47,562 bases of DNA from an uncultured Saprospiraceae bacterium (GCA_964396995.1 CAYNIG010000001.1:13632-61193); one strand, 5' to 3'; shown: positions 8,205 through 29,181, numbered from the stretch's first letter. Notes: generated by a model not told the origin, from the sequence alone. Numbers and translations are program-made.

Positions 8205-8491
8205 AAGCAGACTGATTATAATTTTTTTTTAACCTTATTGGAGGGAGGTGTCATTCACAAAATTATCAATGTAGAGGGTTGGTTGTGCTTTGAAGAACAG
8301 GAATGGCACCCTGCATATTTTACACCAAAGACAAGTAACAGACTTACATTTTTTTTAAAACTAAAATGGATATGATTATTGAAAGTGTTGAGCCTTCCTT
8401 CAAGTTGCCTAAAATTACAAGGCCAGAAAAATGAACCAATGTTCGATTTAGCACTTCAGCCCCGCTTTTGGCAATACCGTGTTACCTGCCG

Positions 8492-9424: not shown

Positions 9425-9429
9425 ATTAA

Positions 9430-9789
9430 TTAATTCATTAAAGATGAAAGAAAGCCAATAGTGATAAGTGTTTCTACCACTGTTGAAACTAAAATTCCTT
9501 TGCTAACTCTACCGCCTTTCAACTCATACAAACCTGAAATGGCTAAAAGTCCTGTGATTACAGCTCCACCAATAGCTATTGCTTCTGTGGTTGGCATACT
9601 TTTTCTCGCTAAAAATAGAATTGTGGAAAGGCCAAGATAAACCGACCCAATTCTTCGGGACATTACTTTGGCTTCATCGGGTGATTGCATTCCCCATTGT
9701 TTCAGCATTGATGTGCTTGAAAATAAAAAACCTAACCCCAAGCCAAATGTGGCGATTGCAGCAATTAATGCGATTGTTGTAAATGTCAT
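9430..9789 (-). CDS. small integral membrane protein (about 4 TM, DUF4345-like)
   Basis: 119 aa, four hydrophobic segments, 5-nt gap to the esterase gene (same strand, likely an operon). Confidence 0.55.
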   Translation of the reverse strand: MTFTTIALIAAIATFGLGLGFLFSSTSMLKQWGMQSPDEAKVMSRRIGSVYLGLSTILFLARKSMPTTEAIAIGGAVITGLLAISGLYELKGGRVSKGILVSTVVETLITIGFLSSLMN

Positions 9790-9850
9790 ATTTCTATTAT
9801 TTTAAAATTTCGGTAAAAATAAGGGCAACATGTCAAACCTACAACATTAG

Positions 9851-9865
9851 AGCATAGTCTATGCT
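9851..9865. promoter_or_regulatory. perfect 7-1-7 dyad (agcatag t ctatgct), candidate MerR-family operator
   Basis: Palindrome read directly. It lies in the 123-bp divergent intergenic region between the membrane-protein/esterase operon and the MerR gene. Confidence 0.45.
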
Positions 9866-9887
9866 TTTAATTTATTTTTATATTCCC

Positions 9888-9895
9888 TATATTTG
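9888..9895 (+). promoter_or_regulatory. -7 box TAtaTTTG for the MerR-family gene
   Basis: tatatttg is an exact match to TAnnTTTG, 17 nt upstream of the ATG at 9913. Confidence 0.4.
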
Positions 9896-9912
9896 CGCCA
9901 AATTTTAATCTT

Positions 9913-10275
9913 ATGCTAATAAATGAACTGTCAAAACGAACAGGTATTACTCATCATACGATTCGTTTTTATGAAAAATCGGGGCTAATCAAAGGTAAAC
10001 GGCTTGAAAGTGTCAAGTCGAACAATTATTTTCATTATGATGAAGAAACAGTAGAAAAACTAAACCTAATAAAAGGTGCTAAATCTATTGGTTTTACAAT
10101 TAGTGAGATTAGTAACCTAATTGATGCATGGTATGATAAGAAATTGTCAACGAAAGAGAAATTATCTGTCTGTGATGAAAAATTATTGTCAATCGAAAAT
10201 AAAATCAAAGAGTTGAAACAAATGCAAAAATTGCTAAATCAATTGAAGAAAAATATTATTTCGTCAAAGTGTTAA
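9913..10275 (+). CDS. MerR-family transcriptional regulator
   Basis: N-terminal HTH (INELSKRTGITHHTIRFYEKSGLI) followed by a coiled-coil dimerisation helix. 120 aa. Confidence 0.85.
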   Translation: MLINELSKRTGITHHTIRFYEKSGLIKGKRLESVKSNNYFHYDEETVEKLNLIKGAKSIGFTISEISNLIDAWYDKKLSTKEKLSVCDEKLLSIENKIKELKQMQKLLNQLKKNIISSKC

Positions 10276-10328
10276 TAGTCTGTCTGTTGAGTGTCGGTCT
10301 ATAATGGCAGGTAACTTCCAGATTGAAG

Positions 10329-10351
10329 AAGAAATTGAAAATCAATTTCTT
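10329..10351 (+). terminator. 10-bp stem, 3-nt loop hairpin after the MerR gene
   Basis: aagaaattga aaa tcaatttctt, read directly. No U-tract. Confidence 0.3.
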
Positions 10352-10576
10352 GTGTGGGTTGTCTCTGACGGAGTCTGATAGGCTTGCCGCTCATCAGAGT
10401 CGTCAGATGGTTAATAAGAAAATTCTACTGAACCATCTCGGATTAATTTTAAAAAGCATTCATCCACAGCAGGTGTATGGCTTAGAATCTTGCTGAAAAA
10501 TCACCACCGGAAATCTTTGGTATAGCCAAACCTCCCAAATCTGGACTGCTTCACTGGCTTTCACTTCAGACATATT

Positions 10577-13009: not shown

Positions 13010-13033
13010 GTCGATAAAAATTTCAGTTATATT

Positions 13034-13257
13034 TTAACACGAACTTTGAAAAATCTCCTTTTCCTGTAAGACCATTTTATTTCTTAAGGTTATTGTTATG
13101 GTGTTTTCATTTTTTACCAGTAGCGCATAATGGTTAACTTCACTCATATCATTTACATTCTTGGTCACACTCAAGCTTAGTTTGTACATGATTGAGGAAG
13201 GTGGTTTTACCTGTTCCAAGAAAACTATCCAATACAGTAAATGGTAGTTTATTCATT
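13034..13257 (-). pseudogene. remnant of a G3E/CobW-family P-loop GTPase (first ~30 codons readable, then frame loss and truncation)
   Basis: Hand translation from ATG 13255-13257 gives MNKLPFTVLDSFLGTGKTTFLNHVQTKLECDQECK*. FLGTGKTTFLNH matches the G3E Walker-A/LLNHIL signature. Only about 75 codons of space remain before the next gene, versus more than 300 aa for intact family members. Confidence 0.5.
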
Positions 13258-13308
13258 TTTCTCAATTTTTAAATTTATAATTCTGAAACACAATTTCATA
13301 TCAACTTT

Positions 13309-14763
13309 TTAAAGCATTTCTTTCAGTTGCCGGTTAGCTATTTTCATCAACCCGGTGCCCAGTATCATCATAAAGACGAAATAAGCCACTATTGAAAATG
13401 GGAGATTATTGCGGAAATAAGTAAACTCCGGCAAGCTCTTATATTCATTCTGTGAAAAAGAATTTCCGTGGAACAGTTTTCCGAAAAAGGTGCGTTGCAG
13501 CCCTTTATGAAGAGCTTCTGTTTCATTTGTAAAATGATGGAAAGCTGCTGCATCGTTATCAGCAAGTGCGGTAAGATAACCATCCGTACTGGCAGCCGGA
13601 TTGATCAGGGTGCTCCAATTAGTAACCTGCTGCCTTTTCTCTACCTGGTGAAAGTATTGCTGCACAACGGGCCATCGCTCTTTATGCAGCAGCAAATGCC
13701 AGGCATGATAAACACGCAGGTAAAAGGCCGGTGAGGATGTGCCGGTATCGGCATTCCTATAAACTTCCTCTTCCTTTGCCAACTGTTTAATAAAACCTGC
13801 AGCAAACAAATTATCGCTATCGATCCTTGGATCTTGAGGTCGACGGGAAAATGAACTGACGGTTGTATTGTCAACCGGTACGGTGGCTGCCGCCAGTTTA
13901 CTGATAACTACCGGTAACACAAAGCATACTGCAATCCAGGCTACTCCACTGACCAGAGCATTGTATGCTGTCGGGCGGCGCAAGGTGTTGATAAAATAAA
14001 ACATCGAAAGCCAGAAACAGAGATAAACTGCAGCTGACAGAAAAAACAAGCCATCGCTCCATACAAAACCATGACCGAAGGTAGCCAGATTAATCACCAA
14101 ACCTGCAATTGCAATGACTAAAAGTAGTGCAGTGGCCAGAAGGGCAACAGCAATAAGCTTAGTTTCCAACCATGCTTTTTCACTTATGCCTTGGGCGGCT
14201 ATCAATCGCCAGTTGCCATTGTCCCTTTCCCCGGACAAAGCATTGAACAAAAGCAATAATATCATAAGGGGGAGCAGGTAAACAATCCAAAAGCTGATAT
14301 CAAAATGGCCGGAGAGTGACCGCAACGGATTAGCAATTTCTGTTTGTTTCAACCATTGCATTTCAAAGTTCTCCGCAGCAAACAAATAATAATAAGGGAA
14401 AACATCACCCTGGCCAATATTAAAAATAGCTGTGGAAACCGGCAGTTTGAAAGAGGGCAGACGGGAGTTCCATAATCCCGGATTCAACCGGCTGCTCCTG
14501 CTATAGGCAGCTTTACCTTCTGCTGTAGTGGTGTCAGCGGAAATACCGGCTTTCATGGCATTCAATAAGCTATCGCTATGTTGACGAAAAGCACTGATGG
14601 TAACCGTTTTAGCCTTTTTATCGACATAGCCTTGGTACAAGGCGTACAATCCTGTGCAAAGAAAGAAGAGAAAAACAATCCAATTGCTTTTTCGTTTTCC
14701 AAATTGCTGCAGTTGTAAGCCGGTTAGTTGTTTAAATAATATATTTTGCTGATGCTTTTCCAT
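13309..14763 (-). CDS. ABC-2/DUF3526-type transporter permease (second of a pair)
   Basis: Multi-TM protein. The start at ATG 14761-14763 overlaps the upstream stop as TAATG. The large extracytoplasmic loop plus 6 TM layout is like DUF3526 permeases. Confidence 0.65.
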   Translation of the reverse strand: MEKHQQNILFKQLTGLQLQQFGKRKSNWIVFLFFLCTGLYALYQGYVDKKAKTVTISAFRQHSDSLLNAMKAGISADTTTAEGKAAYSRSSRLNPGLWNSRLPSFKLPVSTAIFNIGQGDVFPYYYLFAAENFEMQWLKQTEIANPLRSLSGHFDISFWIVYLLPLMILLLLFNALSGERDNGNWRLIAAQGISEKAWLETKLIAVALLATALLLVIAIAGLVINLATFGHGFVWSDGLFFLSAAVYLCFWLSMFYFINTLRRPTAYNALVSGVAWIAVCFVLPVVISKLAAATVPVDNTTVSSFSRRPQDPRIDSDNLFAAGFIKQLAKEEEVYRNADTGTSSPAFYLRVYHAWHLLLHKERWPVVQQYFHQVEKRQQVTNWSTLINPAASTDGYLTALADNDAAAFHHFTNETEALHKGLQRTFFGKLFHGNSFSQNEYKSLPEFTYFRNNLPFSIVAYFVFMMILGTGLMKIANRQLKEML

Positions 14764-16202
14764 TACCTGTAAAAATTTTTCCGACTGATAAAGAATAAAC
14801 CTAAAATGGCAATAAGGGCCCAAAGCAATAGACCTATTCCTTCTGTTTTTACAAACCCCAAACGCCAGCGTAATGCCTGCGTAGGTGCTTCAAAGGCTTG
14901 TATGTCGTGGTATAAACTGTTCTTTACTTTGTAGTCTTTCCAACTTTCAGCACCCCATTTTGAGTTTTGCATCATATCCTCATTAAGGGTCTGCACAAAT
15001 CTTCGACGGTAGGCTTCCGCATCCTGTTGAAAACGAATTTCGGTTTCGAGAGAAGCGTTGCTGGCTGCCATGCTCAGTGAACGCAACAGCATGGGCGGGC
15101 TTACCAGTGAGAACAATGATTGCATTTTCCTTTGATTTTCCAAAGTGTTGTAAATAGTTTTGAAATGCATGTCATATACATTGCTGCTATATTCTTCTGC
15201 ACGCTGCATCACATAACCTTCAAAATTGAATTTTAAGTCTTGAACACTTTCAACGCCTTCGGCTTTCAACACCGAATCCTCAATACGCCTTGCCCGATCG
15301 CTGGCAACATCATGCCCGTTTAATCCGTTGGCAATATCTTCAGCCACTTTCTTTTTGAATTCATAATTGGTAGTGAGCGGATAAGCGTTTTCGCCGGCAC
15401 TGGCAGCCCATTTGGGCAGAATGACACTGCTGATTATCCAGAACAACAGCAGAAGCGAAACCGATACGCCGGATGTATTTGCCAATGCTGAAACCATTGC
15501 ACCTATACTGCACCAGATGATGTAGTACAGTAGATAGCTCAGCCACAAATATAGAAAAGCACCAACCGGCAGTCGCGATGAAAAAATAATGCCTCCTGCG
15601 GCTGCTGTCAGCAATAAATAAGCGGTGATGAAAGCGGCAAATAAGATGGTTGCCGCTGCTGTTTTGGCAAAAATGATTTGCCGCCCCGTAGCACCCTGAG
15701 CAAGATACAATGCATAAGTGCCGTTGAGTTTATCGGAAACCACCAGATTGAATGTTAGCAGAATGATTAAAAGTGGCACAATGAACTGGCATACGAAGGA
15801 AGGCGTGAACGTACCAAACCGGGCACCCGTATCTTTCTCCCCGCTTTCATTTAACAGGAAATCATTTTGCCGGTGCGGTTCCAGGTAAACAGATGTGCCG
15901 GTATAGGCTGTAAGGCCCGGATCGAACAGTGTCAGTACTGACGGTTGCTTGTAGACATAATTACCAAAATGTGCTGCTATATGCGGATGTTTCTCACCTT
16001 GCTGCAGCCATGCCATGCGTGAAGCTTCCTGCGCCGCTTTCCTATGTAAAAGTTTTTTGTGAGTATCGCCAAGCTGTAAAAAAAGAGCCAAAGCGCTCAA
16101 CACTGCCAGCGTGGCAAAAAGCCAGACCGTGCGCCGGTCCCGCCGCCACATCCGCCATTCGTTTAATATAATTTGTTTTACCATAAAAAAAAGTAGCAAC
16201 AT
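14763..16202 (-). CDS. ABC-2/DUF3526-type transporter permease (first of a pair)
   Basis: N-terminus ...IILNEWRMWRRDRRTVW, TM bundle and long C-terminal loop. Translationally coupled to the downstream permease. The start could be M7 (16184). Confidence 0.65.
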   Translation of the reverse strand: MLLLFFMVKQIILNEWRMWRRDRRTVWLFATLAVLSALALFLQLGDTHKKLLHRKAAQEASRMAWLQQGEKHPHIAAHFGNYVYKQPSVLTLFDPGLTAYTGTSVYLEPHRQNDFLLNESGEKDTGARFGTFTPSFVCQFIVPLLIILLTFNLVVSDKLNGTYALYLAQGATGRQIIFAKTAAATILFAAFITAYLLLTAAAGGIIFSSRLPVGAFLYLWLSYLLYYIIWCSIGAMVSALANTSGVSVSLLLLFWIISSVILPKWAASAGENAYPLTTNYEFKKKVAEDIANGLNGHDVASDRARRIEDSVLKAEGVESVQDLKFNFEGYVMQRAEEYSSNVYDMHFKTIYNTLENQRKMQSLFSLVSPPMLLRSLSMAASNASLETEIRFQQDAEAYRRRFVQTLNEDMMQNSKWGAESWKDYKVKNSLYHDIQAFEAPTQALRWRLGFVKTEGIGLLLWALIAILGLFFISRKNFYR

Positions 16203-16282
16203 CCTGTTGCAAGGGAAGCATAATCAGATTTTTTTAAAATAGTCATTTGCAGCAACGGTAGTATTTCATTTGGTGTTGTTAC

Positions 16283-16519
16283 TTAAATTGTTTCCAGATA
16301 CCACTTCTGCAGTTCATTCGCAGAAATTTTTGAAATAGCTAGTGTACAAACCAATTGACCTTGATTCATTATTCCAATATTGGTGCCTACATTAACCGCA
16401 TTGAAAATGTCATGTGTGGCCATAAAAATGGTCTTGCCATCGGAAGCAAAATTGAGGTTGCTTAAGGCAACCATACCATTGTAAAAATTACCAAGCTGTG
16501 AAGCTTGTAATACAGGCAT
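16283..16519 (-). pseudogene. ABC transporter ATP-binding protein with an internal in-frame deletion (Walker A through Walker B missing)
   Basis: The 78-aa product joins a typical ABC N-terminus (PVLQASQLGNFYNGMVALSNLNF) directly to the post-Walker-B/H-loop region (GKTIFMATHDIFNAVNVGTNIGIMNQGQLV). There is no GxxGxGK[ST], LSGGQ or Walker B. Confidence 0.65.
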
Positions 16520-16599
16520 GAGAATATGTTTAAATAAAGGAAAGATGAATTGAAAACATCACTAACTGATAATGTTTATCAGTATGCGAAAGAAGAAAA

Positions 16600-16941
16600 T
16601 CAAGCCGCTGAAGGTGGGCCTCTGTTAGATTGGCCGTTGCCGGGGTTGGCTATTTTTTTGAGTGAACTTAAATCAATAACCCTATTAAAGAAATGGATAG
16701 GGGAAAAATAAACAGTACTAGCATCGTTTAGGGCTATGGAATAGTGGTGAGAACATATTTTGCAATTATCATCAACAGCCTCATTGGATTCTTCCACAAC
16801 TTGTGAATGTTGTTTAGTAACAATATTCTTTTCAAAAGTGCTTTTGTGGTGATGCCAATAAGAAACCGGTGTTGCTGTAAAAGCATACAATGCCAGCAGG
16901 AAGGCAGTTATAATTTTTTTATGCTTTTTTATTAACTTCAA
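16600..16941 (-). CDS. hypothetical membrane-anchored His/Cys-rich protein
   Basis: 113 aa. N-terminal TM (IITAFLLALYAFTATPV), then WHHHK and CKICSHH motifs. First gene of the minus-strand ABC cluster. Confidence 0.45.
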   Translation of the reverse strand: MKLIKKHKKIITAFLLALYAFTATPVSYWHHHKSTFEKNIVTKQHSQVVEESNEAVDDNCKICSHHYSIALNDASTVYFSPIHFFNRVIDLSSLKKIANPGNGQSNRGPPSAA

Positions 16942-17308
16942 TTAATTGCTAATAGGCTTGTAAATATAAGGTTTATTGTAAAAAAATCAAACAGACTGTA
17001 AAATAGGAGATGTCGTTAAATTGATAAGGGAGTTACTGCTGAAATACTATACTATCCCCAATAAAAATTAATTCACTCCAGTCTGCGCCTTACATTACCA
17101 ATATACCCGTTATCTTACCTATATTCTTTTTTTGACGGAATTTGAACTATGTGATTCAAAATGAGAACAGCAAGGCTGGCCCAAAAGCCAAACAGAAATT
17201 GCTCTACTCTTAAATGCAGGAACGACCAAAATGAAACCTTAGTTTAAATTGACTGAGCGATATCAGCCCCAAACCTTTATACACATTGGCTATTTAGATT
17301 AATTTTGA

Positions 17309-17716
17309 TTGTACTTATACATTGCTTCTCCGGTGAAAGACAAACTAATAAACGTACTCTTGACTATTACATCACTTTTTGGTTACCTGGAATGGGGTGG
17401 TGATAATAAAATGTTTCTATACCAGGCAATAGCGGATATTTTCAACAAAATATTTACTGCCCCGGCATCTGTTTTACATCCGTTTATTGTATTACCCCTG
17501 ACCGGTATATTCATATTAATATGTACCCTGTTTCAGAAAATGCCTGGCAGGATTTTGACCTTTTTTGGTATAGGCTGTATCGGTTTGTTGTTGGCTTTTA
17601 TGTGTGTGATCGGGGTAATAAGTCTAAACTACAAAATCATGCTTTCCACCGTGCCGTTTTTGGCGATGGCGACCTATACCATATTCAGGTACAAGAATAA
17701 AATGGTATCTCAGTAA
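17309..17716 (+). CDS. hypothetical integral membrane protein
   Basis: About 4 hydrophobic helices. The start is uncertain: TTG at 17309 in the ORF track, GTG at 17333 is also possible. Confidence 0.45.
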   Translation: MYLYIASPVKDKLINVLLTITSLFGYLEWGGDNKMFLYQAIADIFNKIFTAPASVLHPFIVLPLTGIFILICTLFQKMPGRILTFFGIGCIGLLLAFMCVIGVISLNYKIMLSTVPFLAMATYTIFRYKNKMVSQ

Positions 17717-17723
17717 TTTTCAA

Positions 17724-18068
17724 TTATTCTTTTATCCTCGTAAGTTTTATCTCTCCAAATTGATTCTTTAGCACGATTTCATCCTGGGAAGTAAGTTCAC
17801 CGGTAGACTCCACTGTATTATCATTAAGCGATACTTTGTAAGAAAATTTATTTCCATCCACTTTACCATCATGTATGGGAAGTTCTCCGAAGGAGCTGGA
17901 AATGCTGCCTTTTAGTTCATTACCCGTTACTTCAAATTTGTATTTGAGTTCCATCATTTCACCGTTTTGATTCGGTCTTTTACCCAACCAGGTACCGGAA
18001 ATGCCGGTCTGGCTCAATGCAGAAATAGAAACAAAAAGGAATGTGGTTAAAAAAAAGAATGGCTTCAT
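17724..18068 (-). CDS. small secreted protein, beta-rich (lipocalin-like), unknown function
   Basis: Signal peptide MKPFFFLTTFLFVSISALSQ, then a GTWLG...ELKGSISS...GKVDGNKFSYKV pattern. Confidence 0.55.
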   Translation of the reverse strand: MKPFFFLTTFLFVSISALSQTGISGTWLGKRPNQNGEMMELKYKFEVTGNELKGSISSSFGELPIHDGKVDGNKFSYKVSLNDNTVESTGELTSQDEIVLKNQFGEIKLTRIKE

Positions 18069-18176
18069 AAATCTAAGTTTTTTTTATTTCAGTCAAATAT
18101 AAACAGTATCTCCAAAAGCAAGACCACTCTGTAGCTATTACTACCGGATTTTTGCTATTGACTATCTTTGACTCCT

Positions 18177-18864
18177 ATGCCCGGGTTATTATCTTTATTT
18201 CGAATTGTTTTACTTGCCATTTCAATAGCTAATCTTTCGGCTTTTCTTTTAGCCAGCAAGCACCCAATATCCTTTTCATTTTAGTAGACGATATGCGCTT
18301 TGATGATTATCATCTTGGGGGGCATAATTTTGTCGAGACCCCCAATATAGACCGGCTCGCGAAAGAAGGTGCGCAATTCAGAAATATGTACTACACCCTT
18401 ATGCTCACCAAGCAGGGCGGCTTTTTTAACCGGGTAATATGCGCATCATAATGGAATCATAGATAATACCGCAAAAGATAAGCTCAATCATGAGTTTATG
18501 ACCTTTCCGCGAATCTTGAAAGAAAAAGCCGGGTATCAAACTGCTTTCATCGGCAAATGGCATATGGGTAATGACGATTCAAAACGACCGGGATTTGATT
18601 ACTGGATAGGTATGCCCGGTCAGGGCGAAGCCATTGATCCACTGTTAAATATAAATGGAATACGGCAGCGGGTAAAAGGATATGTAACGGATTTGTTTAC
18701 TGGTTACGCAATTGATTTCCTGGAAAAAAAAGCGGATAAATCCGTTGTTTTATACTTATCGCACAAAGCTTTACACCCCAATGTAATACAACGCGATGAC
18801 GGATCGTTAGTCAATATTGGTGAAGGGGAATTTATTGCAGCCGAAAGACATAAGTCAAAATATC
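18177..18864 (+). pseudogene. decayed 5' fragment of a sulfatase gene (paralogous copy of 26632..27325)
   Basis: Direct alignment to the intact gene. The same tatctttg box sits at the same spacing to the ATG. The signal-peptide region is unalignable and out of frame. There is a 5-nt deletion (atgtactacaccc vs atgttttgtaccacaccc) and a CAG->TAA nonsense change. The last ~360 nt have 3 mismatches. Homology stops abruptly after ...caaaatatc at 18864. Confidence 0.9.
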
Positions 18865-18880
18865 TCCAGTTTATCAATAT

Positions 18881-19408
18881 TTATTTACACTTCTTCTCTT
18901 TCGTCTTTTTCGTCTTATCCACTTTCCCATTCACCCCTGCCTGATCGGGATAATAACATCCCGGATTACTGATCAGTGCATCTGCCTCATCACTGCACTC
19001 GAGCCTGCAGGCGCGGCCATACAGCAGTTGTGTATCTCCTTTTTTATTTACGATTTTCATCATATACTTAAAAGCACCGATATACGGCTCTTTGTATCCA
19101 TCTCGCAGACCATTCCATCCATAGTTTTCCAGATTAGTATATACTATAGAGGGTCTATAAAATAGTACCGTATCACCTGTACCCGTAAAAATAGTAAAGT
19201 CTATCACCTCCACCACATTACCATTGAGATGAGGAAAAAACAGATCATTTATGCTGTCTTTATTGGGAGAGAATACATTGGGCACATAGATGCTCATATC
19301 GGCATAAGTATATTCTATCGGCTCGGCACCACAGCAGGCCTCATATTTTTTCTGAGCTATGATAAAACTATTGCTTATCATGATAGCTACTAATATTATG
19401 TATCTCAT
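18881..19408 (-). CDS. small secreted protein consisting mainly of a T9SS type-B (gliding-motility CHU_C-type) sorting domain
   Basis: Signal peptide MRYIILVAIMISNSFIIAQ. VPNVFSPNKDSINDLFFP ... WNGL ... GAFKYMMKI ... GRACRL matches the type-B CTD consensus (PNxFSPNGDGxND...WDG...G.Y.Y). An extra Cys/Lys-rich ~35-aa tail follows. Confidence 0.7.
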   Translation of the reverse strand: MRYIILVAIMISNSFIIAQKKYEACCGAEPIEYTYADMSIYVPNVFSPNKDSINDLFFPHLNGNVVEVIDFTIFTGTGDTVLFYRPSIVYTNLENYGWNGLRDGYKEPYIGAFKYMMKIVNKKGDTQLLYGRACRLECSDEADALISNPGCYYPDQAGVNGKVDKTKKTKEKKCK

Positions 19409-19497
19409 ATTATATAATTTTTAGTTAATCTAAATCTTATCTACTACTCATTTTTCTCATGCCTTCTTATCACTCACACTCAAACCTCGACACTTGC

Positions 19498-19525
19498 CAC
19501 TTGTAATTTGTCACTTGTAATTTGT
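19498..19525. repeat. perfect 14-bp tandem duplication (cacttgtaatttgt x2) upstream of the 175-aa gene
   Basis: Read directly. It is preceded by a partial third unit (cacttgc, 19491-19497). Confidence 0.8.
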
Positions 19526-19538
19526 AATTTTCCATTTG

Positions 19539-19949
19539 TCAATTCTTCACCACCATCATCACCTTATACCTCCTACCATCTACTACCCTCAAAAAGTATC
19601 TCCCATTCTGCAGCCCGGTCAGATCTATATTATTTTGCCCTTGTGACCAATGTATAGGTATTACCCTGCCTAATATATCAGATAGTGTGATTTCTGCATC
19701 AGCACTGAGTATTGCTGATCTGATCTCTACTATTCCCGAGGAAGGGTTAGGAGAGAGTACGAGATCTGCATCATCTATTTCCTGCCAGCTTGCTATTTGT
19801 GTAGTTAATACTTTATCGGTATTAGATACTAATGGTTGAGGGCAGATATTGCGGGCAGTGCGGTCGCCTGCGGCATCGTAGGTGAAAGTGATGCATTGAG
19901 CGGAAAGCTTAGCTATAGATGAAAATAGTAAAATTGAAATGAGTTTCAT
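19539..19949 (-). CDS. small secreted protein: signal peptide, one YD/RHS-type repeat, then a T9SS type-A C-terminal sorting domain
   Basis: MKLISILLFSSIAKLSAQ signal. ITFTYDAAGDRTARN is a YD repeat. LSPNPSSGIVEIRS...LQNGRYFLRVVDGRRYKVMMVVKN matches the Por secretion tail pattern. Confidence 0.7.
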   Translation of the reverse strand: MKLISILLFSSIAKLSAQCITFTYDAAGDRTARNICPQPLVSNTDKVLTTQIASWQEIDDADLVLSPNPSSGIVEIRSAILSADAEITLSDILGRVIPIHWSQGQNNIDLTGLQNGRYFLRVVDGRRYKVMMVVKN

Positions 19950-19979
19950 TATGAATAAGTCTAATTTTAAATAAATTAA

Positions 19980-20264
19980 TTAAATAATCCTTGCATATGC
20001 ATCAGAATAGTACTCAACTTTTGAATCCGCTAATTCATTTTGAATCATTAATGCGATTTGTTGACCTTCAGAATCAAGAATGTCAATGATATCTCTATCT
20101 TCAAAACCAGAATAATGTTCTAATTCATATTTAATCAGCCAAATACATATTTTCTGAATCAATAAATCACTAATACCAAGTTGGTTTAGATCAATGAATT
20201 CACTTTCATACTTGGACCTCACCCCACTTCCACCAAGTTCAGCGTCTACAATTAAATATTTCAT
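19980..20264 (-). CDS. candidate cognate immunity protein for the RHS toxin tip (94 aa, cytoplasmic)
   Basis: It starts 11 nt after the RHS stop on the same strand. No signal peptide or TM. Acidic and small. It shares the AT-rich composition of the toxin tip. Confidence 0.55.
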   Translation of the reverse strand: MKYLIVDAELGGSGVRSKYESEFIDLNQLGISDLLIQKICIWLIKYELEHYSGFEDRDIIDILDSEGQQIALMIQNELADSKVEYYSDAYARII

Positions 20265-20275
20265 GTTTTTATTTA

Positions 20276-23200
20276 TTATTTAAAAATTCTAAATACTCTA
20301 TGGTCAATTATATTTTCTTTTGTAAGACCAATTTCAAAAAATCCAGGATTTCCGTTCATAGTTCCATTTAACCTAAATATTTGATAACCGTTTGGTTTAT
20401 TAATAGGATTAGATTTTAGTATTAAGTCATCAAAACTATATGGAAAATTATGGCCTCGTGGATCCGTTAATGCTCTTTCTCTGACTTTATTTGCATATTT
20501 AAAACCATGTGTGAACAAACTACTTGTTTTGCTAGAACTTGATTCAATTGAATGAACAATTAGATCGTTTTTTAACGTATAACCATTAACGTTATCACCA
20601 ATAGATTCAAGATAAGAATAACTATTAAAATCGTCTGCAATTTGACTTTCATTGGCACTAATGCCGGTAATTTTTCCAGGAGGATTTATTTCACCACTAT
20701 TAGGATTAACCCCGGATTTACTTTTACTTAACCATTTGGATATTTGGCCAGAAGCTGCTCCTATTGCTGCCCCAAATAAAACATCTCTTCCATAACTCTC
20801 CAATGAATAAGGATCACCAAATGCAATTTGATTTCCTATTCCCAAGATCGGTGATCCAAATGCAGATCCAACGCCTCCTACGACTGCACCCCCAAGAAAA
20901 CTAGAGCCTGCTGCACTTACTGCGCTGTAGCTAAAAGCGGTAGCCATGGTGCCTCCATTTGCTAATACGCCAGCTGCTCCTCCGGTAGCCGCTGTCACTG
21001 CACCGGCAACTGCACCGATTCCAAATGCCTTGAGTCCATCTCCTAAGTTGTTTATCTTACCTTGAAATCCTTTGATCAATAAATTAGCAGTACCTCCAAT
21101 AATTCCTCCTATAACTATATGCAACCATTCTCCATCAGGATCTGTATATTTTAGCGGATTATTTAGTGCATAACTATATCTATTATAATTTTGTGTAAGA
21201 TCAGGGGCCTGTATATTATTATCTACCGCCATCATCCTACCCACCACAGGATCGTAAAGACGGCCATTCATATTAATTATATTGAACAGCGGTAAGTGTT
21301 CGTGTCCGGTATATCCCCTCTGCATAAAAGTAATGGAGGATGTGCCTGTACTGCTATAATCCCAAGCACTTGGGTTACGATATCTACCCCAAACATCATA
21401 GTTTCTATTAAGTACTACAGATCCCCCGTTATTAGTGACTTTTACTATAGATCCTAAATGGTCTGTGTAGGCATATAAAAATCCATTGGTGCCGCTTGTA
21501 TTGGTTACGATCGATACCAGCCCATCACCTGCTGATATATAATGTATATGCCGGGTAATGCCTCCGCTGATGTCGATCTCATAGTCTCCAAAAAAATAAT
21601 GCGTATTGGTGGTACTACCGCTTTGTGTAGTGACGGTCTTTACTCGGTTTTCATCAGTACCATAGGTAAAGGTAAGGGTATTGGAGCCCTCTGATAAACT
21701 GGCTGGCTGTAAAAAAGAAGTGTAAGTGGGCAATGATTGAGATACGGTAGATATATTGCCTGCTGATGGATTGATCTGGGTCACCGCATTGATGCTGGCA
21801 CTACCATAGGTATAGGTACCAGCATCTGTCTTGCTAATTATATTACCATTTGCATTATAAGCTATATTTTGTGTAGTTAGGCCCGTTACGGTACTACTGG
21901 TAAGCCTATTGAGATTATCGTATACAAATGATTCTGTTTTAGTCACCAAATTATCTGTACGGCTGGTAAGGTTGCCTGTACTGTAATTCCATACCATGCT
22001 GAGATTTTGTAAGGTGCCCGCTGTATAATTGGTAGGTATGCCAAAGTGATATGTATTGGTACTTGTCACACCATTGCCCAGAGTATAGGTGAGATATTGA
22101 TTGTACCCATTCATGGTGCCCGTACTAAATATAGTGGTAGCTCCATTAGTGATGGTACTCAGATAGCCTTTGGTGTCATAATTATAGTTGAGTACAAACC
22201 CACTGGGGTAGGCTATAGAGCTTAGTAGATTGGAAGTAGTATATCCATAGGTTTTAATGTAATCAGTGGCATCCACCCTGTCTTTTTTGGTAGCTACCCT
22301 GCCATAGATATCATAAGTGTATTCCTCTATATGTCCTGAGTATGATGTGATTTTTTTGAGTTTTCCGGCTGAGCCCGTTCCTGTAGTATGGTATTCATAG
22401 CTCATAGTACCTTCGGGCATTACTTTGGTGAGCATACGACCTGCCAGATCGTAGGTCATAGTATGGGTCTGGCTTTTGGCATTTATCTGTGACACCAGCT
22501 CACCCAGTGCATTGTAATCATAGGTAGTGGTACCTGCATTGATATCTACGAGTGATGATTGCCTGGCATAGGCATCGTAATTATTGGTGACGAGAGTATT
22601 GGCTCCATTTACTACCGTTTTTAATCCGCCATGACTGTAATACGTATAGTTTAGAGTACCACCATAGTCAGTAGCTGATGTGGTTTTACCTGAGGCATCG
22701 GTCACTTTAGATGATACCTGGCTGGCAGGATTAGTCACTGTTACAGTAGTATTGCCGGAAGCGTATGCATAGCCATAGGTAGTAGTATAGTTGGTACCTC
22801 CTTTATTGTTTACAGTGCTGCTGATTCGATTGTATCCATCATAGTTTGTGGTGTTTATCTCGCCTGTTTCTCCAAGGCCTGATTTATAAGGCCCTGTTAC
22901 TGTAGTGAGATTACCCTTGGCATTGTATGATTTTAAAGTGGTGATCCAGTAATTTTGCCAGCCTTCTGTTTCTGATTTGATCTCCCTGTCTAATAAATCA
23001 TAATAAATTATTTCTTGAGGTTTACCGGTGGTGGTGACAGTAGTTTTAGTGATGGGCCCTCCGGTGGCATATCCATAGCCTGTGCTTATAGTTACTGAAG
23101 GTTGGATTGTCTGCGATGTTTGTCGACCAAAAGCATCATATGAAAAGGTGGTTACTACACCATCTATACCGGTCACTTGAGTAGGTTTTCCCCACAAAGG

Positions 23201-26200
23201 AGAATAAACTACCGATAAAGTTCCTTGCTGGGTCACCGTGGTGATAGGATACCTGCCTTTGGTGTCAAAAGTATGAGTAAAAGGAGTTCGGGTAGTAATA
23301 CCGGTAGCACTCACTGTAGCTGAGGTTTGATTTCCAAATGAATTATAAGCAAAGGTGGTAGTCTTTGCTTTGGGCAAACCAGAGAACTCTACAGAGCTGA
23401 TCATTTGACTCAAAGTGTTGTACCCATACGTATTGGTAAATGAATAAGCTGATTGACCGCTCCTGGTGATCGTGGTACTTACAGAGGTAGGCAATGATGG
23501 CACCGGTGTACCGTGCTGACCAAAGACAGTAGTAGTAGTGGTAGTTTCAAGGCCACTTTGTACATTTACTGTATTACTATTTATATTTCCATAGCTATCG
23601 TAGCCCAATGTAGTGACTGTACTTTGAGTGGTAAATGAATTATTTTCATTTATTCCATTAACCCTACTATAAAACTTGCCTGATCCTGTGGATACCCATT
23701 GATTGGTATTGGTGATTTGGCTGAGGAGTTGAAAGCTATTAGGCACATATTTTGTAGTAATTATTTTAGCAGCAGAGGTAAAGTAGGAAGTAGTTTCAAA
23801 TTCATTTTCATTAATTAACTGAATTCCGGTAGTCGTATTATGAGAGATATTTCTTAAAAATCCCATGAGCCCCCTGCCCTCTTTGTGTATTTTTAATTCT
23901 TCATAGGTATAGTTAGTAGTATTGGTAGTACCTATGCCATTATCTACTACTATGCTGGAAGCCAATGTGAATGGCAGCAATACATTGTTTACTTTCCCGG
24001 TTAATATTGCACCTCTGCCATAAAATGATCCCTGTTCGTTAAGTCTTTTATAAGCCCACTGTGTGGTGTGATTGTAGCCATTTTTTACTTTTTCCAGGTA
24101 AAGTTCTTTACCATCTTTCATAAAATAGATACCAAAAAATGGGGAGGTATTATTTACCCTTGTGAGCAATTCTGATTTTCCATCACCATTAATATCAAAT
24201 GGAGTAAATGGCATTGTATTAATGGCAAATGTTTGGACTTGAGATTGTACCTGAAAAGAGTTTCCTTTAGAAAAATAAGTCAAGGTGGTGGCAGGTGATG
24301 CGGAGGTAGCATGAAAAATATCTGTCTTTCCATCCCCATTGGCATCTAATAGTACAATCTTATCAGGGGCCCCTGTCTCGTTTATATTTGGTGTAACAGA
24401 AAAACCGAAAGCAGTACTGACAAAACCGGTACCTGTGGAGGCATAAATACTCCATGCAGATGCATTGTTATTTTTGTCTGCTCTACTGAGTATATCCATT
24501 TTGCGATCTCCATTAAAATCGCCAAAAAAGACTAAGTGAGTATTAGTAGGGTAAGCTGAATAATAAATGCTCCTTACTACATAATTATCAAAAGTAAATA
24601 CCTCTGTCCAGTTACCCGAAGTAATCATAAGATCAGATTTTCCATCGCCATTAAAATCTAAAACTTGAATTCTATTGGCAGTAGGCCAGGTAGATAGTTG
24701 AATATTCACGGTACCAGTAGATCCTACGGTTAAGAATCCAGAGGAAATACCTCCGTGATATAAATGTATACCAGCAGGCCCTCCGGTGGTCGTACTGAGC
24801 ATGGATACCAAATCGCCCATACCATCTCCATTAAAATCACCGGAAAATAAATAGTGCTGTGTGGTATTATTGATTTTACTGTAACCTGTATAAGGATTTA
24901 TAGTAATAGAGTCGTTAAAATTATTCAGGCCCTGAGATCCTTTATAAATTCGCACAAAATCCAGTGTGAGATTATTTGCTGTAACCGAACCACTGGTTTT
25001 TGCAGCAACCAAATCATCTATTCCGTCACCGGTATAATCATTGGTGTAAAATGTATAAACATCGGGGATAGATTTCTTTTTTAATGAAGAAAAATTTCCA
25101 GGTAGATTTTTGGTATAAGATCCTGTAAACCCTGTAGTGCCATTGGATTTATATAGATTAAATTTGGAAGTGTATTCTACGCCATTGGATACGTTTGTCA
25201 CAGCCTCCACTAAGTCAGAGAAGCCATCCGTATTAAAATCACCTGAAAAATAATTTGCAGTCTGCACTCCCGTGGTCCCTGTGGTAAGTGAAGTGTAAAT
25301 AGCTGGCTGATCTCCATATTTAAAAATAGTACTATTTAGTAATGTATTATCAGACCCCATCTCGACCACTTCTGTTAAATAGCTGTTGACCAGGTCCCAC
25401 CCATAATAAAATCTATACGATTTGAACCCAGCCAGTCCTTCAGCAGTAATAGTAATTTTATCAAGAAAATAATTATTGGTAATACCAATGGTACCAATGT
25501 AAACGGTATTTACATCTGATCGGGATACATAAGTAAAACTTATCTTACTATAAGGAGCCAGACCTGCTGATGTATTTCCTGTATAGTTTATTTCTGATAT
25601 TCTGGGATTATTATTATCCGTAGCATATACATATTCAATATAGTTACCATCCTGATATCGGATTTTGTTTAATCGCCATATGTGGGGTACAACGCCATTA
25701 TCGGAAGTAATACTATTTCCTGTATTACCATATTCATATACTACGCCATTTTTTTGTGTTACGTTAAATGCAATTTGATTGGTAACAGCAGATGTATAGC
25801 AGGAAATGCTCGCAAAAGATTCTATCTCTGTACCATATACAGACCCACTAAGGCCATAAGAGCCCGTAACGAGGTTTAATCTCACACCATCCAAAGCAAA
25901 ACGATCGTTTGCATTTGCTTCGATAGGGTTCACTAAATTGTCGTGTATAAGATCTCTGTTTACTCTGGTGATAGAAGATAGACCCGCCAATGACCAGCCC
26001 TGTCCGAGAGCACCATTGCCCCCCAAAGAATTATAAACCACACTCAAAGATGGTTGTACGCCATTAGTTCCGGGTGGAACTATTATCGGAATACTATAAG
26101 TGGCTGCCCCTGACAAATCTACATCTGCAGCCGCAGGTATGGTACCTACAGGCAAAGTAGTATTAATAGTCTTAGTAAAGTTAGCATTGGTGTATAAAGC

Positions 26201-26272
26201 ACCTTGACTTAAAATTCCATTTACTATGGCAACTATAAAATAAAGAATAAAGAATGACCTGTAAATTCTCAT
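20276..26272 (-). CDS. RHS/YD-repeat polymorphic toxin with SpvB-like N-domain and 7-bladed FG-GAP propeller (fused TcB-TcC-like cocoon) and a variable C-terminal toxin
   Basis: Signal peptide MRIYRSFFILYFIVAIVNGILSQG. SpvB/TcdB N-terminal motif (GAATYSIPIIVPPGTNGVQPSLSVVYNS...GQGWSL). Seven GDFNGDGxxDL-type FG-GAP repeats. Dozens of YD repeats (YDAFGRQT, YDLAGRM, YDIYGRV...). RHS core end YTGHEH...GRLYDPVVGRMMAVD...NPLKYTDPDGEW. A 283-aa tail follows. Confidence 0.95.
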   Translation of the reverse strand: MRIYRSFFILYFIVAIVNGILSQGALYTNANFTKTINTTLPVGTIPAAADVDLSGAATYSIPIIVPPGTNGVQPSLSVVYNSLGGNGALGQGWSLAGLSSITRVNRDLIHDNLVNPIEANANDRFALDGVRLNLVTGSYGLSGSVYGTEIESFASISCYTSAVTNQIAFNVTQKNGVVYEYGNTGNSITSDNGVVPHIWRLNKIRYQDGNYIEYVYATDNNNPRISEINYTGNTSAGLAPYSKISFTYVSRSDVNTVYIGTIGITNNYFLDKITITAEGLAGFKSYRFYYGWDLVNSYLTEVVEMGSDNTLLNSTIFKYGDQPAIYTSLTTGTTGVQTANYFSGDFNTDGFSDLVEAVTNVSNGVEYTSKFNLYKSNGTTGFTGSYTKNLPGNFSSLKKKSIPDVYTFYTNDYTGDGIDDLVAAKTSGSVTANNLTLDFVRIYKGSQGLNNFNDSITINPYTGYSKINNTTQHYLFSGDFNGDGMGDLVSMLSTTTGGPAGIHLYHGGISSGFLTVGSTGTVNIQLSTWPTANRIQVLDFNGDGKSDLMITSGNWTEVFTFDNYVVRSIYYSAYPTNTHLVFFGDFNGDRKMDILSRADKNNNASAWSIYASTGTGFVSTAFGFSVTPNINETGAPDKIVLLDANGDGKTDIFHATSASPATTLTYFSKGNSFQVQSQVQTFAINTMPFTPFDINGDGKSELLTRVNNTSPFFGIYFMKDGKELYLEKVKNGYNHTTQWAYKRLNEQGSFYGRGAILTGKVNNVLLPFTLASSIVVDNGIGTTNTTNYTYEELKIHKEGRGLMGFLRNISHNTTTGIQLINENEFETTSYFTSAAKIITTKYVPNSFQLLSQITNTNQWVSTGSGKFYSRVNGINENNSFTTQSTVTTLGYDSYGNINSNTVNVQSGLETTTTTTVFGQHGTPVPSLPTSVSTTITRSGQSAYSFTNTYGYNTLSQMISSVEFSGLPKAKTTTFAYNSFGNQTSATVSATGITTRTPFTHTFDTKGRYPITTVTQQGTLSVVYSPLWGKPTQVTGIDGVVTTFSYDAFGRQTSQTIQPSVTISTGYGYATGGPITKTTVTTTGKPQEIIYYDLLDREIKSETEGWQNYWITTLKSYNAKGNLTTVTGPYKSGLGETGEINTTNYDGYNRISSTVNNKGGTNYTTTYGYAYASGNTTVTVTNPASQVSSKVTDASGKTTSATDYGGTLNYTYYSHGGLKTVVNGANTLVTNNYDAYARQSSLVDINAGTTTYDYNALGELVSQINAKSQTHTMTYDLAGRMLTKVMPEGTMSYEYHTTGTGSAGKLKKITSYSGHIEEYTYDIYGRVATKKDRVDATDYIKTYGYTTSNLLSSIAYPSGFVLNYNYDTKGYLSTITNGATTIFSTGTMNGYNQYLTYTLGNGVTSTNTYHFGIPTNYTAGTLQNLSMVWNYSTGNLTSRTDNLVTKTESFVYDNLNRLTSSTVTGLTTQNIAYNANGNIISKTDAGTYTYGSASINAVTQINPSAGNISTVSQSLPTYTSFLQPASLSEGSNTLTFTYGTDENRVKTVTTQSGSTTNTHYFFGDYEIDISGGITRHIHYISAGDGLVSIVTNTSGTNGFLYAYTDHLGSIVKVTNNGGSVVLNRNYDVWGRYRNPSAWDYSSTGTSSITFMQRGYTGHEHLPLFNIINMNGRLYDPVVGRMMAVDNNIQAPDLTQNYNRYSYALNNPLKYTDPDGEWLHIVIGGIIGGTANLLIKGFQGKINNLGDGLKAFGIGAVAGAVTAATGGAAGVLANGGTMATAFSYSAVSAAGSSFLGGAVVGGVGSAFGSPILGIGNQIAFGDPYSLESYGRDVLFGAAIGAASGQISKWLSKSKSGVNPNSGEINPPGKITGISANESQIADDFNSYSYLESIGDNVNGYTLKNDLIVHSIESSSSKTSSLFTHGFKYANKVRERALTDPRGHNFPYSFDDLILKSNPINKPNGYQIFRLNGTMNGNPGFFEIGLTKENIIDHRVFRIFK

Positions 26273-26617
26273 TGCTTTGAATTTATTAAATGATGTAAAG
26301 CACGGCCTGATCTTATTTTTAGCAATACAAAAAGAGAATTTGTAGAATTAAAAATAAAACTTAACCGTAATTTCCCCTAAACTTTTGTTGGTCTTTTACA
26401 CTTGAAGTCGATGAAGTATTCTATTGTGCCTGGTGTTATTATTCTATAGTTCTTTAAATTGTATTCAAAAACTTTTAATGTCCTGATAAATTATATTTAT
26501 TTTAATTATACGACGAATATACGATCCGTATTATAGTAATGTCAAGTTTTAACACTAAATATTCAAATAAATTTTTAACAGCCCTTCAAATTAAATATTC
26601 AAATATTTTCTGATCAC

Positions 26618-26625
26618 TATCTTTG
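26618..26625 (+). promoter_or_regulatory. -7 box TAtcTTTG for the sulfatase gene (6 nt before the ATG; leaderless-style)
   Basis: Exact TAnnTTTG match. The same box and the same 6-nt spacing to the ATG are conserved in the pseudogene copy (18163-18170). Confidence 0.4.
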
Positions 26626-26631
26626 AATCAT

Positions 26632-28056
26632 ATGTCGATTCATAGATCTGTGATCCGTCTCTTTTTAATATCCATCATTTTTTATAGTCTTTCCATTCCG
26701 GCTTTTGCACAACGCAGGCCCAATATTCTTTTCATTTTAGTAGACGATATGCGCTTTGATGATTATCATCTTGGCGGGCATAATTTTGTCGAGACCCCCA
26801 ATATAGACCGGCTGGCGAAAGAAGGAGTACAGTTCAGAAATATGTTTTGTACCACACCTTTATGCTCACCCAGCAGGGCGGCTTTTTTAACCGGGCAGTA
26901 TGCGCATCATAATGGAATCATAGATAATACGGCAAAGGATAAGCTCAGTCATGAGCTCATGACCTTTCCGCGAATCTTGAAAGAAAAAGCCGGGTATCAA
27001 ACTGCTTTCATCGGCAAATGGCATATGGGTAATGACGATTCAAAACGACCGGGATTTGATTACTGGATAGGTATGCCCGGTCAGGGCGAAGCCATTGATC
27101 CACTGTTAAATATAAATGGAATACGGCAGCGGGTAAAAGGATATGTAACGGATTTGTTTACTGGTTACGCAATTGATTTCCTGGAAAAAAAAGCGGATAA
27201 ATCCGTTGTTTTATACTTATCGCACAAAGCTTTACACCCCAATGTAATACAACGCGATGACGGATCGGTAGTCAATATAGGAGAAGGGGAATTTATTGCA
27301 GCCGAAAGACATAAGTCAAAATATCACGATAAGATTTTTACCAAACGACCCAACTATGGAATAAGCCCGACTGACAAACCTGCTTTGATGCGCACTATTG
27401 GTGACCTGCCACCACTTAGCATTCATACCGTCACTGCCGAAAAAACTATTCGCGACAGAGCGGAAATGCTGTTGGCCATCGATGAGGGTCTTGGTCGAAT
27501 ACGGGAATACCTCAGCCAAAAAGGAATACTGGACAATACTATAATAGTGCTTACCGGTGACAATGGATATTGGTATGGTGAACATGGCTTGAATGAAGAA
27601 AGGCGACTGGCTTATGAAGAAGGAATCAGAATACCACTTATCATACGATACCCTCCCCGTATCAAACCAGGAACTGAAATCAAAGAATTGGTACAAAACA
27701 TAGACCTGGCTCCTAGCCTACTTTCTATGTGCAATATCGTACCTCCTGCTAATTTGGATGGCCGATCAGTAGAACCTCTGTTTGCCGATAAAAAAAATGA
27801 TTGGAGAAAAGAATTATTTTTCGAGTATTATTCCGATATCGTATTTCCCAGGGTACAAAATATGGGCTACAAAGCAATACGAACAGATAGGTATAAATAC
27901 ATACGATATCACCGACTGGAAGGAATGGACGAAGTGTACGATCTGAAAAAAGATCCCTATGAACTGGAAAATATACACAATAGCAATAAAGGAAAGAAAA
28001 TACGAATGAAATACGAATCCAGGCTCAAATCATTTGGATTAACTAATGCCCGATAA
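26632..28056 (+). CDS. sulfatase (formylglycine-dependent arylsulfatase/glycosaminoglycan-sulfatase family), secreted
   Basis: Signal peptide. NILFILVDDMRFDD metal-binding start. CSPSR formylglycine motif (TPLCSPSRAAFLTGQ). GKWHMG. LTGDNGYWYGEHG. ATG at 26632 is preferred over the TTG at 26623. Confidence 0.9.
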   Translation: MSIHRSVIRLFLISIIFYSLSIPAFAQRRPNILFILVDDMRFDDYHLGGHNFVETPNIDRLAKEGVQFRNMFCTTPLCSPSRAAFLTGQYAHHNGIIDNTAKDKLSHELMTFPRILKEKAGYQTAFIGKWHMGNDDSKRPGFDYWIGMPGQGEAIDPLLNINGIRQRVKGYVTDLFTGYAIDFLEKKADKSVVLYLSHKALHPNVIQRDDGSVVNIGEGEFIAAERHKSKYHDKIFTKRPNYGISPTDKPALMRTIGDLPPLSIHTVTAEKTIRDRAEMLLAIDEGLGRIREYLSQKGILDNTIIVLTGDNGYWYGEHGLNEERRLAYEEGIRIPLIIRYPPRIKPGTEIKELVQNIDLAPSLLSMCNIVPPANLDGRSVEPLFADKKNDWRKELFFEYYSDIVFPRVQNMGYKAIRTDRYKYIRYHRLEGMDEVYDLKKDPYELENIHNSNKGKKIRMKYESRLKSFGLTNAR

Positions 28057-28807: not shown

Positions 28808-28857
28808 AATGGATCACACAGTGAATTTAAATTAAAGCATAGAATTCAAAACATTTA

Positions 28858-28925
28858 AACCTCTTTCTTTCCCTGCCCCAAATTGGCCAATACCATTCTA
28901 TATTAATCCATTTACACGGCAAATC
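28858..28925. repeat. diverged copy of the AlkB 3'-end/downstream segment
   Basis: ccccaaattggccaataccattctatattaatccatttacacggcaaatc aligns with acccaaatttgccaataccattctacattatattaatcaatttgcaccgaaattc at 29127-29181. Confidence 0.6.
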
Positions 28926-29107
28926 TGGTCTTGGACTTAGACATTTATCGTCATAGGAACCAAACTATTAAGCAGCAGATCAATAAATTTTAATCACCCA
29001 TTTCCTGTTTATTCATGGCTTCGGTGATTAAGTTGTGTTCAAATGCCAAGAGTGTGGTTCCCAAAAAACACCTTATTTTAAGGGACAGGGAAAATACCCT
29101 AGTGTCA

Positions 29108-29181
29108 ACCATACTTTCTTCCCATGACCCAAATTTGCCAATACCATTCTACATTATATTAATCAATTTGCACCGAAATTC
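29108..29181. repeat. master copy of the above repeat; includes the last codons and stop of alkB
   Basis: Same alignment. 29163-29181 encodes ...NFGAN* on the minus strand. Confidence 0.6.

Follow-up and report, generated by a model that had tools for sequence, protein, structure and literature searches.

Gain of an RHS toxin cassette of 8.5 kb at the 5′ end of a sulfatase gene in a Chitinophagales strain

How does a toxin gene cassette come to lie between two copies of the beginning of a neighbouring enzyme gene? The question is raised by a 47,562-nt stretch of DNA from an uncultured Saprospiraceae bacterium (GCA_964396995.1, CAYNIG010000001.1:13632-61193), which was analysed as a whole and is called the window below, all coordinates being counted from its first letter. 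Within it, an 8.5-kb addition with an RHS toxin gene cassette stands at the front of a sulfatase gene, with a truncated copy of the 5′ part of the same gene (copy A) to its left and the complete gene (copy B) to its right (Table 1). The initial annotation had read this layout as truncated copy, insert and full copy, and the layout is real. It had attributed the layout to a circular element that carried ∼0.7 kb of a sulfatase allele and integrated by a single crossover, with a partly homogenised paralogue remnant as the alternative.

Table 1. Features of the RHS island and its flanks (window coordinates)
Feature	Position	Strand	Evidence or remark
114-aa gene, conserved left neighbour of the sulfatase gene in every empty-site strain	17724..18068	-	no Pfam match
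Resident sulfatase promoter region, ancestral position, with -7 box TATCTTTG at 18163-18170	18148..18176	+	96-99% identity to alleles L017 and L044 over -45..+96 (six-way alignment, pairwise tables)
Copy A, truncated sulfatase pseudogene: resident signal peptide, codons 1-231	18177..18864	+	alignment to empty-site alleles
Left joint, apparently illegitimate: sulfatase codon 231 fused to sequence 16 nt past the stop of the 175-aa gene	18864..18865	.	
175-aa small secreted protein with type-B (CHU_C-like) T9SS tail, last cassette gene	18881..19408	-	CHU_C E = 5.9e-4, under the Pfam cut-off
136-aa protein with Por_Secre_tail (type-A T9SS CTD)	19539..19949	-	PF18962 E = 2.4e-9
94-aa putative immunity gene, immediately 3′ of the RHS toxin tip	19980..20264	-	position only; no Pfam match
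1998-aa RHS / TcB-TcC-like polymorphic toxin	20276..26272	-	Pfam: SpvB, FG-GAP, TcdB_toxin_midN, RHS_repeat
AT-rich divergent control region, probably come with the island; new sulfatase -7 box TATCTTTG at 26618-26625	26273..26631	.	
Copy B, intact 474-aa sulfatase (Sulfatase + SGSH_C), evidently chimeric	26632..28056	+	PF00884 E = 2.4e-56; PF16347
Apparently foreign signal-peptide segment of copy B, MSIHRSVIRLFLISIIFYSLSIPAFAQRR; length as in orthologues	26632..26727	+	50-55% nt identity to every orthologue
Interval of the probable homologous (homeologous) crossover, most conserved block, encodes ILFILVDDMRFDDYH	26728..26774	+	B-specific sites versus L017
'D' tract within copy B	27015..27336	+	matches copy A at all sites but 27268, 27279 and 27282; 11 nt past the end of the duplication

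The RHS cassette is an insertion at a single-copy sulfatase locus

The initial annotation had proposed to look among relatives for a sulfatase gene that directly adjoins the 114-aa gene, and such an empty site, with a single sulfatase gene and no island, is present on at least 11 conspecific contigs from at least nine samples, with flanks that are ∼99.5% identical. The contigs with allele P0001 (L016–L018) come from three independent assemblies (SRR14932630, ERZ27240680 and ERZ794922), and on them a MacB gene, a cobW fragment, two ABC-2 permease genes, a 78-aa ORF and the 114-aa gene are followed by the sulfatase gene and then by a 253-aa gene, FA_desaturase, a methyltransferase and PorZ, which is the order of the window without the island. 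Allele P0121 (L044–L049), from the same cluster, adds eight more contigs from at least six samples with the same empty site. In L016–L026 and L044–L049 the 114-aa gene lies 107–110 nt upstream of the single sulfatase gene, and in the window a comparable 108 nt separate it from copy A. Over 8188–18864 the window is colinear with contig L017 (98.9% identity), and the alignment is taken up again at 26719; compared with L017, the window has gained a 7854-nt insert (18865–26718) and a second copy of 607 nt. Since conspecific strains carry the empty site, the RHS cassette is a true insertion.

The sulfatase gene is also single-copy in three further species. It is preceded by the 114-aa gene in the first (P0002, 81% amino acid identity) and by a GFO_IDH-type gene instead in the second (P0003, 83%), and the contig of the third (P0004, 81%) begins 175 nt upstream of the sulfatase gene, so that the upstream neighbour falls off the contig. 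The upstream side of the sulfatase gene is a variable hot spot across species. Genus-level synteny (G005 and G008) was uninformative about the empty site, the orthologues there being 58–62% identical with no neighbours in common. We also observed that the P0003 species lacks a 10-kb block that the window has at 8204–18100, between the GFO_IDH-type gene (6831–8204) and the sulfatase gene, with genes for an esterase, MerR, MacB and two ABC-2 permeases, a 78-aa ABC remnant and the 114-aa gene. In that species the GFO_IDH gene is followed directly by the sulfatase gene, and in the P0002 species a different gene takes the place of this block.

The single-copy state bears on the possibility that copy A is an old paralogue remnant, in which case two ancient sulfatase genes, one of them decayed and partly homogenised by conversion, would flank the island by coincidence. 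The graded identity of the two copies, described below, would suit such a history, but the locus is single-copy, with the 114-aa gene adjoining, on at least 11 conspecific contigs and is single-copy in three other species, the promoter and signal peptide of copy A are orthologous to that single gene, and the substitutions between the copies are synonymous allelic differences. Ancient paralogy, or a duplicated arrangement shared among relatives, is therefore refuted, and we regard the paralogue remnant as barely credible.

As for the insert itself, a Pfam scan agrees with the earlier description of its content as an RHS toxin gene, a putative immunity gene and two genes for T9SS proteins. The four-gene cassette recurs in other contexts in the congeners G003 and G001, and twice in another Chitinophagales MAG, and it is a conserved unit present elsewhere in the genomes of relatives. 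In these cassettes the RHS shell is 56–68% identical and the 136-aa Por_Secre_tail gene is kept, homologues of the 175-aa protein (60–67% at the amino acid level) occupy the same cassette position in G003, G001 and a Chitinophagales MAG, and the 94-aa gene is not conserved, the RHS tips and immunity genes being different. Full-length homologues of the RHS toxin (56–59% amino acid identity) were found in only two of 10 congeneric genomes, in other contexts. No close donor of the cassette was found in JGI metagenomes; GTDB species genomes returned only relatives of 58–68% identity in one Chitinophagales MAG, 400 genomes of the order gave at most 50% identity and no close donor, and an exact-protein look-up of the RHS protein found no record outside the MAG.

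The locus has no site-specific mobility machinery. Among all island and flank ORFs, Pfam identifies neither an integrase or recombinase nor a transposase domain, the window contains no tRNA or tmRNA gene, and there are no terminal inverted repeats at 18865 and ∼26600–26727. Plasmid and phage collections yielded no relative. The flanking repeat, at ∼600–720 nt and with graded identity, is unlike the short repeats of att sites.

Two unequal copies of the sulfatase 5′ end

Repeat search and MAFFT alignment place the direct repeat at 18148–18864 and 26603–27325, which bears out the repeat reported at 18161–18864 and 26616–27325 and gives its full extent. The start-to-start spacing is 8455–8461 nt, and the two copies are the only ones in the 5.2-Mb genome. 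The -7 box and the ATG lie in a 32-nt block that is 78% identical between copies A and B. Outside this block, 26273–26631 resembles neither what lies left of copy A nor the intergenic region of the empty sites; the initial annotation, too, had found the sequences left of the two copies unrelated. The signal-peptide coding region had been called unalignable, which is an overstatement: it is ∼50% identical, with equal length apart from one base. From 18263 to 18497 there are 17 substitutions (at least 12 had been counted), together with a 5-nt deletion after 18386 and a TAA at 18435–18437 in place of the CAG of copy B. Over the next 309 nt (18498–18806) there is no mismatch at all, and the three mismatches noted earlier in the 3′ part cluster at 18807, 18818 and 18821. 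The step in identity, from 17 of 235 to 0 of 309 substitutions, does not arise by chance (Fisher p = 4.5e-7). Homology between the copies ends at 18864, and the 175-aa ORF, stop included, begins at 18881, leaving the 16-nt gap that had been pointed out.

Copy A holds the resident 5′ end of the gene, its signal-peptide region being that of allele L044 except for a 1-nt deletion. Its body differs by 5–7% from the empty-site alleles, mainly at synonymous sites (94% identity to the empty-site allele), and at the left joint homology stops with respect to copy B and to all empty-site alleles alike. The 1-nt deletion, a T5→T4 change at 18242–18245 that shifts the frame at codon ∼23, is visible only against the empty-site allele and had been overlooked for want of that comparison. 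With it, the 5-nt deletion and the TAA stop, copy A reads as a dead stub, and these two deletions and one nonsense codon are its only true decay. The NCBI annotation of the MAG lists a 148-aa protein (P0122) at 18498–18944 on the plus strand, which is an annotation artefact: the tail of the sulfatase stub is read across the joint and antisense into the 175-aa gene, and an exact-protein look-up of this stub ORF found no record outside the MAG. The stub promoter would likewise now read antisense into the 175-aa gene.

Copy B encodes a protein with 95% amino acid identity to the empty-site protein P0001, its nearest match in a large protein search, with an intact CSPSR motif; an exact-protein look-up of the window sulfatase found no record outside the MAG. 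Over -45..+96, the promoter and signal peptide of copy B are as distant from the orthologues as the P0004 species is from the others, with 50–55% nt identity to each orthologue. Because this 5′ end keeps the -7 box, its spacing to the ATG and the 30-residue length of the signal peptide, it is orthologous and probably from another species-level lineage. The foreign sites end at 26727, 26728–27014 is identical to L017, and the first informative site between A and B is 26775. The bodies of both copies are within-species types, with 94–97% identity to the empty-site allele versus ∼80% for other species. On this comparison the working gene is evidently a chimera, its resident-type body being fused to a promoter and signal peptide of island origin. 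The sulfatase and RHS genes would now diverge from one shared, newly gained AT-rich control region. As to where the foreign signal peptide came from, a word-based protein search with residues 1–40 gave no match, its back-translation into a degenerate DNA pattern had 0 matches in JGI metagenomes, and the DNA upstream of the RHS genes of G003 and G001 has no similarity to 26273–26727.

Only the depositor's assembly links the 5′ parts to the exits of the repeat, as k = 31 Logan contigs cannot bridge the 309-nt core. In principle, a chromosome with one lesion-bearing sulfatase gene and no island, together with a separate 8.46-kb circle or a segment of another strain, could have been mis-resolved into the present layout. 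The MAG is short-read-like and broken into 518 contigs, the perfect repeat core exceeds k-mers of usual length, Logan contigs end where the repeat begins or ends, the same study contains empty-site strains (SRR14932630), and re-pairing the 5′ parts with the exits gives an equal number of allelic breakpoints, all of which would be compatible with such an error. However, only as assembled do all three lesions fall in the truncated copy and leave the 474-aa frame intact, mis-resolution needs an 8.5-kb circle without a replication or mobility gene at about chromosomal copy number, and the assembly contains no alternative contig for the locus. The left joint is moreover borne out by a k-mer assembly made independently: run SRR14932609 has two Logan contigs that match window 17016–18357 and 18835–20139 at 100% identity, the first holding the 1-nt deletion and the first copy-A variants and the second (L027) spanning 18864/18865, and each of them stops after 30–38 nt common with copy B, as expected for k = 31. 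Since these contigs match at 100%, the left joint and the stub are real sequence, and we consider a mis-resolved assembly very unlikely.

Allelic mosaic and the origin of the duplication

Between codons 31 and 231, 15 of the 20 substitutions that separate copies A and B are synonymous third-position changes (binomial p = 4e-6 against an expectation of 25%), and most of the substituted sites also vary in the 81% relative. This excess of synonymous changes indicates that A and B diverged as working genes in different lineages, and that their differences are allelic. Pseudogene decay is thereby ruled out as the cause of the 5′ divergence, and the description of copy A as decayed turns out to be mostly wrong, the three lesions aside.

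The same allelic divergence is seen beyond the repeat. Far from the island, the window differs from L017 at 42 of 9400 positions (0.45%), whereas in the 1.4 kb left of the island it differs at 75 of 1465 (5.1%; p = 4e-37 versus the far region). Divergent ('D'-type) patches lie left of the gene at -700..-600 and -200..-100, D-type sequence covers the whole body of copy A, and further patches occur in copy B and rightward at 27015–27336, 27603–27741, 28200–28400 and 28800–29200, so that D tracts stand outside the repeat beside the A/B allele pattern. The D tract within copy B continues to 27327 and 27336, although homology between A and B ends at 27325. Because the tract runs past the end of copy A, it cannot come from conversion templated by copy A, and A-to-B gene conversion is ruled out as the source of the identical 3′ part. 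Neither a D-type lineage nor a source of the foreign 5′ end was found in the protein and metagenome searches or among 400 genomes of the order. The divergent patches on both outer flanks indicate that the whole structure probably moved between lineages by homologous recombination, and the graded identity of the copies would then stem from inter-lineage import with interspersed recipient segments rather than from decay or A-to-B conversion.

Two further local differences from the empty-site strains were noted. An isolated patch at 13000–13200, near the boundary of the cobW fragment and the ABC-2 genes, has 12 mismatches per 200 nt to the empty-site strain, to which the left flank is elsewhere almost identical, and on the right flank the only stretch that does not align to empty-site strains is 29010–29178, with 168 nt in place of 104 nt in L017.

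From these patterns we infer an order of events, the donor lineages and a mode of integration, be it by a circle or between chromatids. In the best explanation, an integrase-free insertion-duplication, the RHS cassette would have come in along with a segment, promoter plus signal peptide, from the orthologous sulfatase gene of another species. Two joining events would have linked it to the resident gene, namely a homologous (homeologous) crossover at 26728–26774 and an illegitimate joint at codon 231 (18864/18865), and with these joints in crossed order on the resident gene, 598 nt (+97..+694) would come to lie on both sides of a 7.86-kb insert. Copy A, with the old promoter, the old signal peptide and 231 codons, would have been left redundant and would then have gathered its three disabling lesions, while copy B would be the working gene, run from the promoter and signal peptide that the island brought. 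The structure most likely arose in a lineage 5–7% diverged and would afterwards have entered the present strain by homologous recombination, with interspersed recipient segments in the imported structure, of which 26728–27014 may be one. We assign a probability of roughly 0.7 to this explanation as a whole, that is, an insertion-duplication through two joints followed by transfer from a diverged lineage; the part of the history that involves two lineages is suggested by mosaic patterns only. In the core of the explanation, namely that the insertion is real, duplicated part of the gene and left a working gene that is chimeric, our confidence is very high. Any scenario spelled out in full calls for two events or more, or else for a coincidence.

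A single crossover would give a reciprocal allele pattern, with a resident 5′ and an incoming 3′ part in the truncated copy and the converse in the full copy. The full copy agrees with this, being foreign to 26727 and then of empty-site type; the body of the truncated copy is another allele, though of a within-species type, and D tracts also stand outside the repeat. A strict Campbell integration, in which a free circle with the cassette and the promoter-proximal 0.7 kb of a sulfatase allele entered by one RecA crossover and the 3′ part was converted later, would fit the topology exactly. The change in copy B from a foreign 5′ part to resident type, with a body of another allele type in copy A, would place its crossover at 26728–26774, and the same mechanism has been proposed for Rhs tip displacement (PMC2935791). 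Even so, such a circle would need a ready-made chimera, with the signal peptide of another species on a within-species body, and its crossover would have to share the 47-nt interval of that older fusion, which is ∼8% of the 598 nt. Conversion from copy A cannot give the D tract that passes the end of copy A, and no account would be given of the divergent patches that lie left of copy A and well to the right of the duplication. For these reasons, we judge strict Campbell integration to be unlikely. A circle taken straight from the foreign species predicts a copy A body that is ∼20% diverged, in contrast to the 94% identity to the empty-site allele that is observed; a circle that carried an already chimeric segment is possible. 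Of the circle put forward in the initial annotation, then, the topology and the direction of insertion hold, but the 0.7-kb foreign allele does not, as the only clearly foreign part is the promoter and signal peptide of copy B.

Relation to known systems and consequences for the locus

Campbell-type insertion-duplication, as with non-replicating 'suicide' circles, leaves a direct repeat on both sides of the insert, with one copy truncated at a novel joint and the other complete, and like the island locus it is homology-dependent rather than site-dependent and is reversible by recombination between the repeats. The present case differs in that its allele pattern is unlike that of a simple foreign-allele circle, the clear foreign input to the full copy being the promoter and signal peptide, and in that it is known from sequence alone. 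A second parallel is homology-facilitated illegitimate recombination (HFIR), studied in PMC3240628, together with transformation-triggered merodiploidy, in which interchromatid integration yields duplications, shown in PMC3784515. In these systems, as here, homology anchors one end only, the other being joined non-homologously; pairing between chromatids gives a duplication with foreign DNA at the new joint. The island has the one homologous and one non-homologous junction characteristic of HFIR (26728–26774 and the abrupt end at 18864). In contrast to the island locus, which duplicates recipient DNA, classical HFIR replaces or deletes it (PMC3240628), and the merodiploids described so far span 100–900 kb and are bordered by IS repeats (PMC3784515). 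A Campbell-type circle crossover and an end-anchored, HFIR-like sister-chromosome integration give the same topology.

SXT/R391 elements insert in the 5′ end of prfC and supply a new promoter and N-terminal codons, using a tyrosine integrase and a 17-bp att site. The likeness to the present locus lies in an island at the 5′ end of a gene that restores function with a new promoter and N-terminal coding sequence; the difference is that here there is no recombinase and the repeat is ∼600–720 nt long.

For Rhs genes themselves, Jackson et al. 2009 proposed homologous single crossover with circular intermediates as the means of C-terminal tip displacement (PMC2935791). The island resembles that process as an Rhs-associated gain without an integrase, in which the displaced gene part persists as a silent remnant beside an intact gene. 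Unlike in tip displacement, the anchor is a neighbouring housekeeping-type sulfatase gene rather than the rhs core, the whole cassette is the cargo, and the remnant is a sulfatase 5′ stub rather than an rhs tip, with no rhs core fragment repeated. No rhs-core repeat was found downstream of the RHS gene, where the immunity gene and the genes of the two T9SS-tailed proteins lie.

The locus is therefore a well-documented further instance of integrase-free insertion-duplication and no new kind of mechanism. It shows cleanly, in nature, how a competition-toxin cassette can be acquired in the absence of a dedicated mobility gene, with filled and empty sites both in public data from related samples, and it gives Rhs biology a concrete locus for the long-proposed single-crossover, circular-intermediate route. 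It also has a side effect on annotation that is easily missed, in that the neighbouring enzyme becomes chimeric, with an imported promoter and signal peptide. One could go further and suppose that whole Chitinophagales RHS cassettes pass from strain to strain and from species to species as integrase-free episomal circles whose 'attachment site' is the 5′ end of a conserved neighbour gene, from its promoter through the signal peptide to the first codons. If so, each landing would swap the promoter and signal peptide of the neighbour and leave a decaying stub, and the locus would be evidence from nature in favour of Rhs evolution through circular intermediates, broadened to an anchor other than rhs. 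No flanking gene duplicates were found around the RHS cassettes of relatives, which thus give no sign of such a regular mode of movement, and we think this generalisation quite improbable.

Recombination between the repeats could excise the island. Because all three lesions stand upstream of the longest perfect stretch, 18498–18806, the sulfatase gene would in most excisions be left dead. If the sulfatase matters to the cell, this dead-on-excision arrangement would stabilise the island in an addiction-like manner.

Other repeats are present in the same genome. A 376-nt direct repeat with 100% identity occurs at G000:C145:1588-1963 and 4965-5340 (L050), at a distance of 3.4 kb. Here a 153-aa ORF contains a second copy of the 3′ end of a 355-aa FGE-sulfatase-like ORF, and the two copies enclose an amidohydrolase gene and a PQQ-propeller fragment. 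The genome may thus hold another insertion-duplication, unless the repeat is an effect of assembly. Genome self-comparison also showed tandem repeats within the window, with units of ∼254 nt (93–97% identical) at 40593–41337 and of 75 nt at 1–282.
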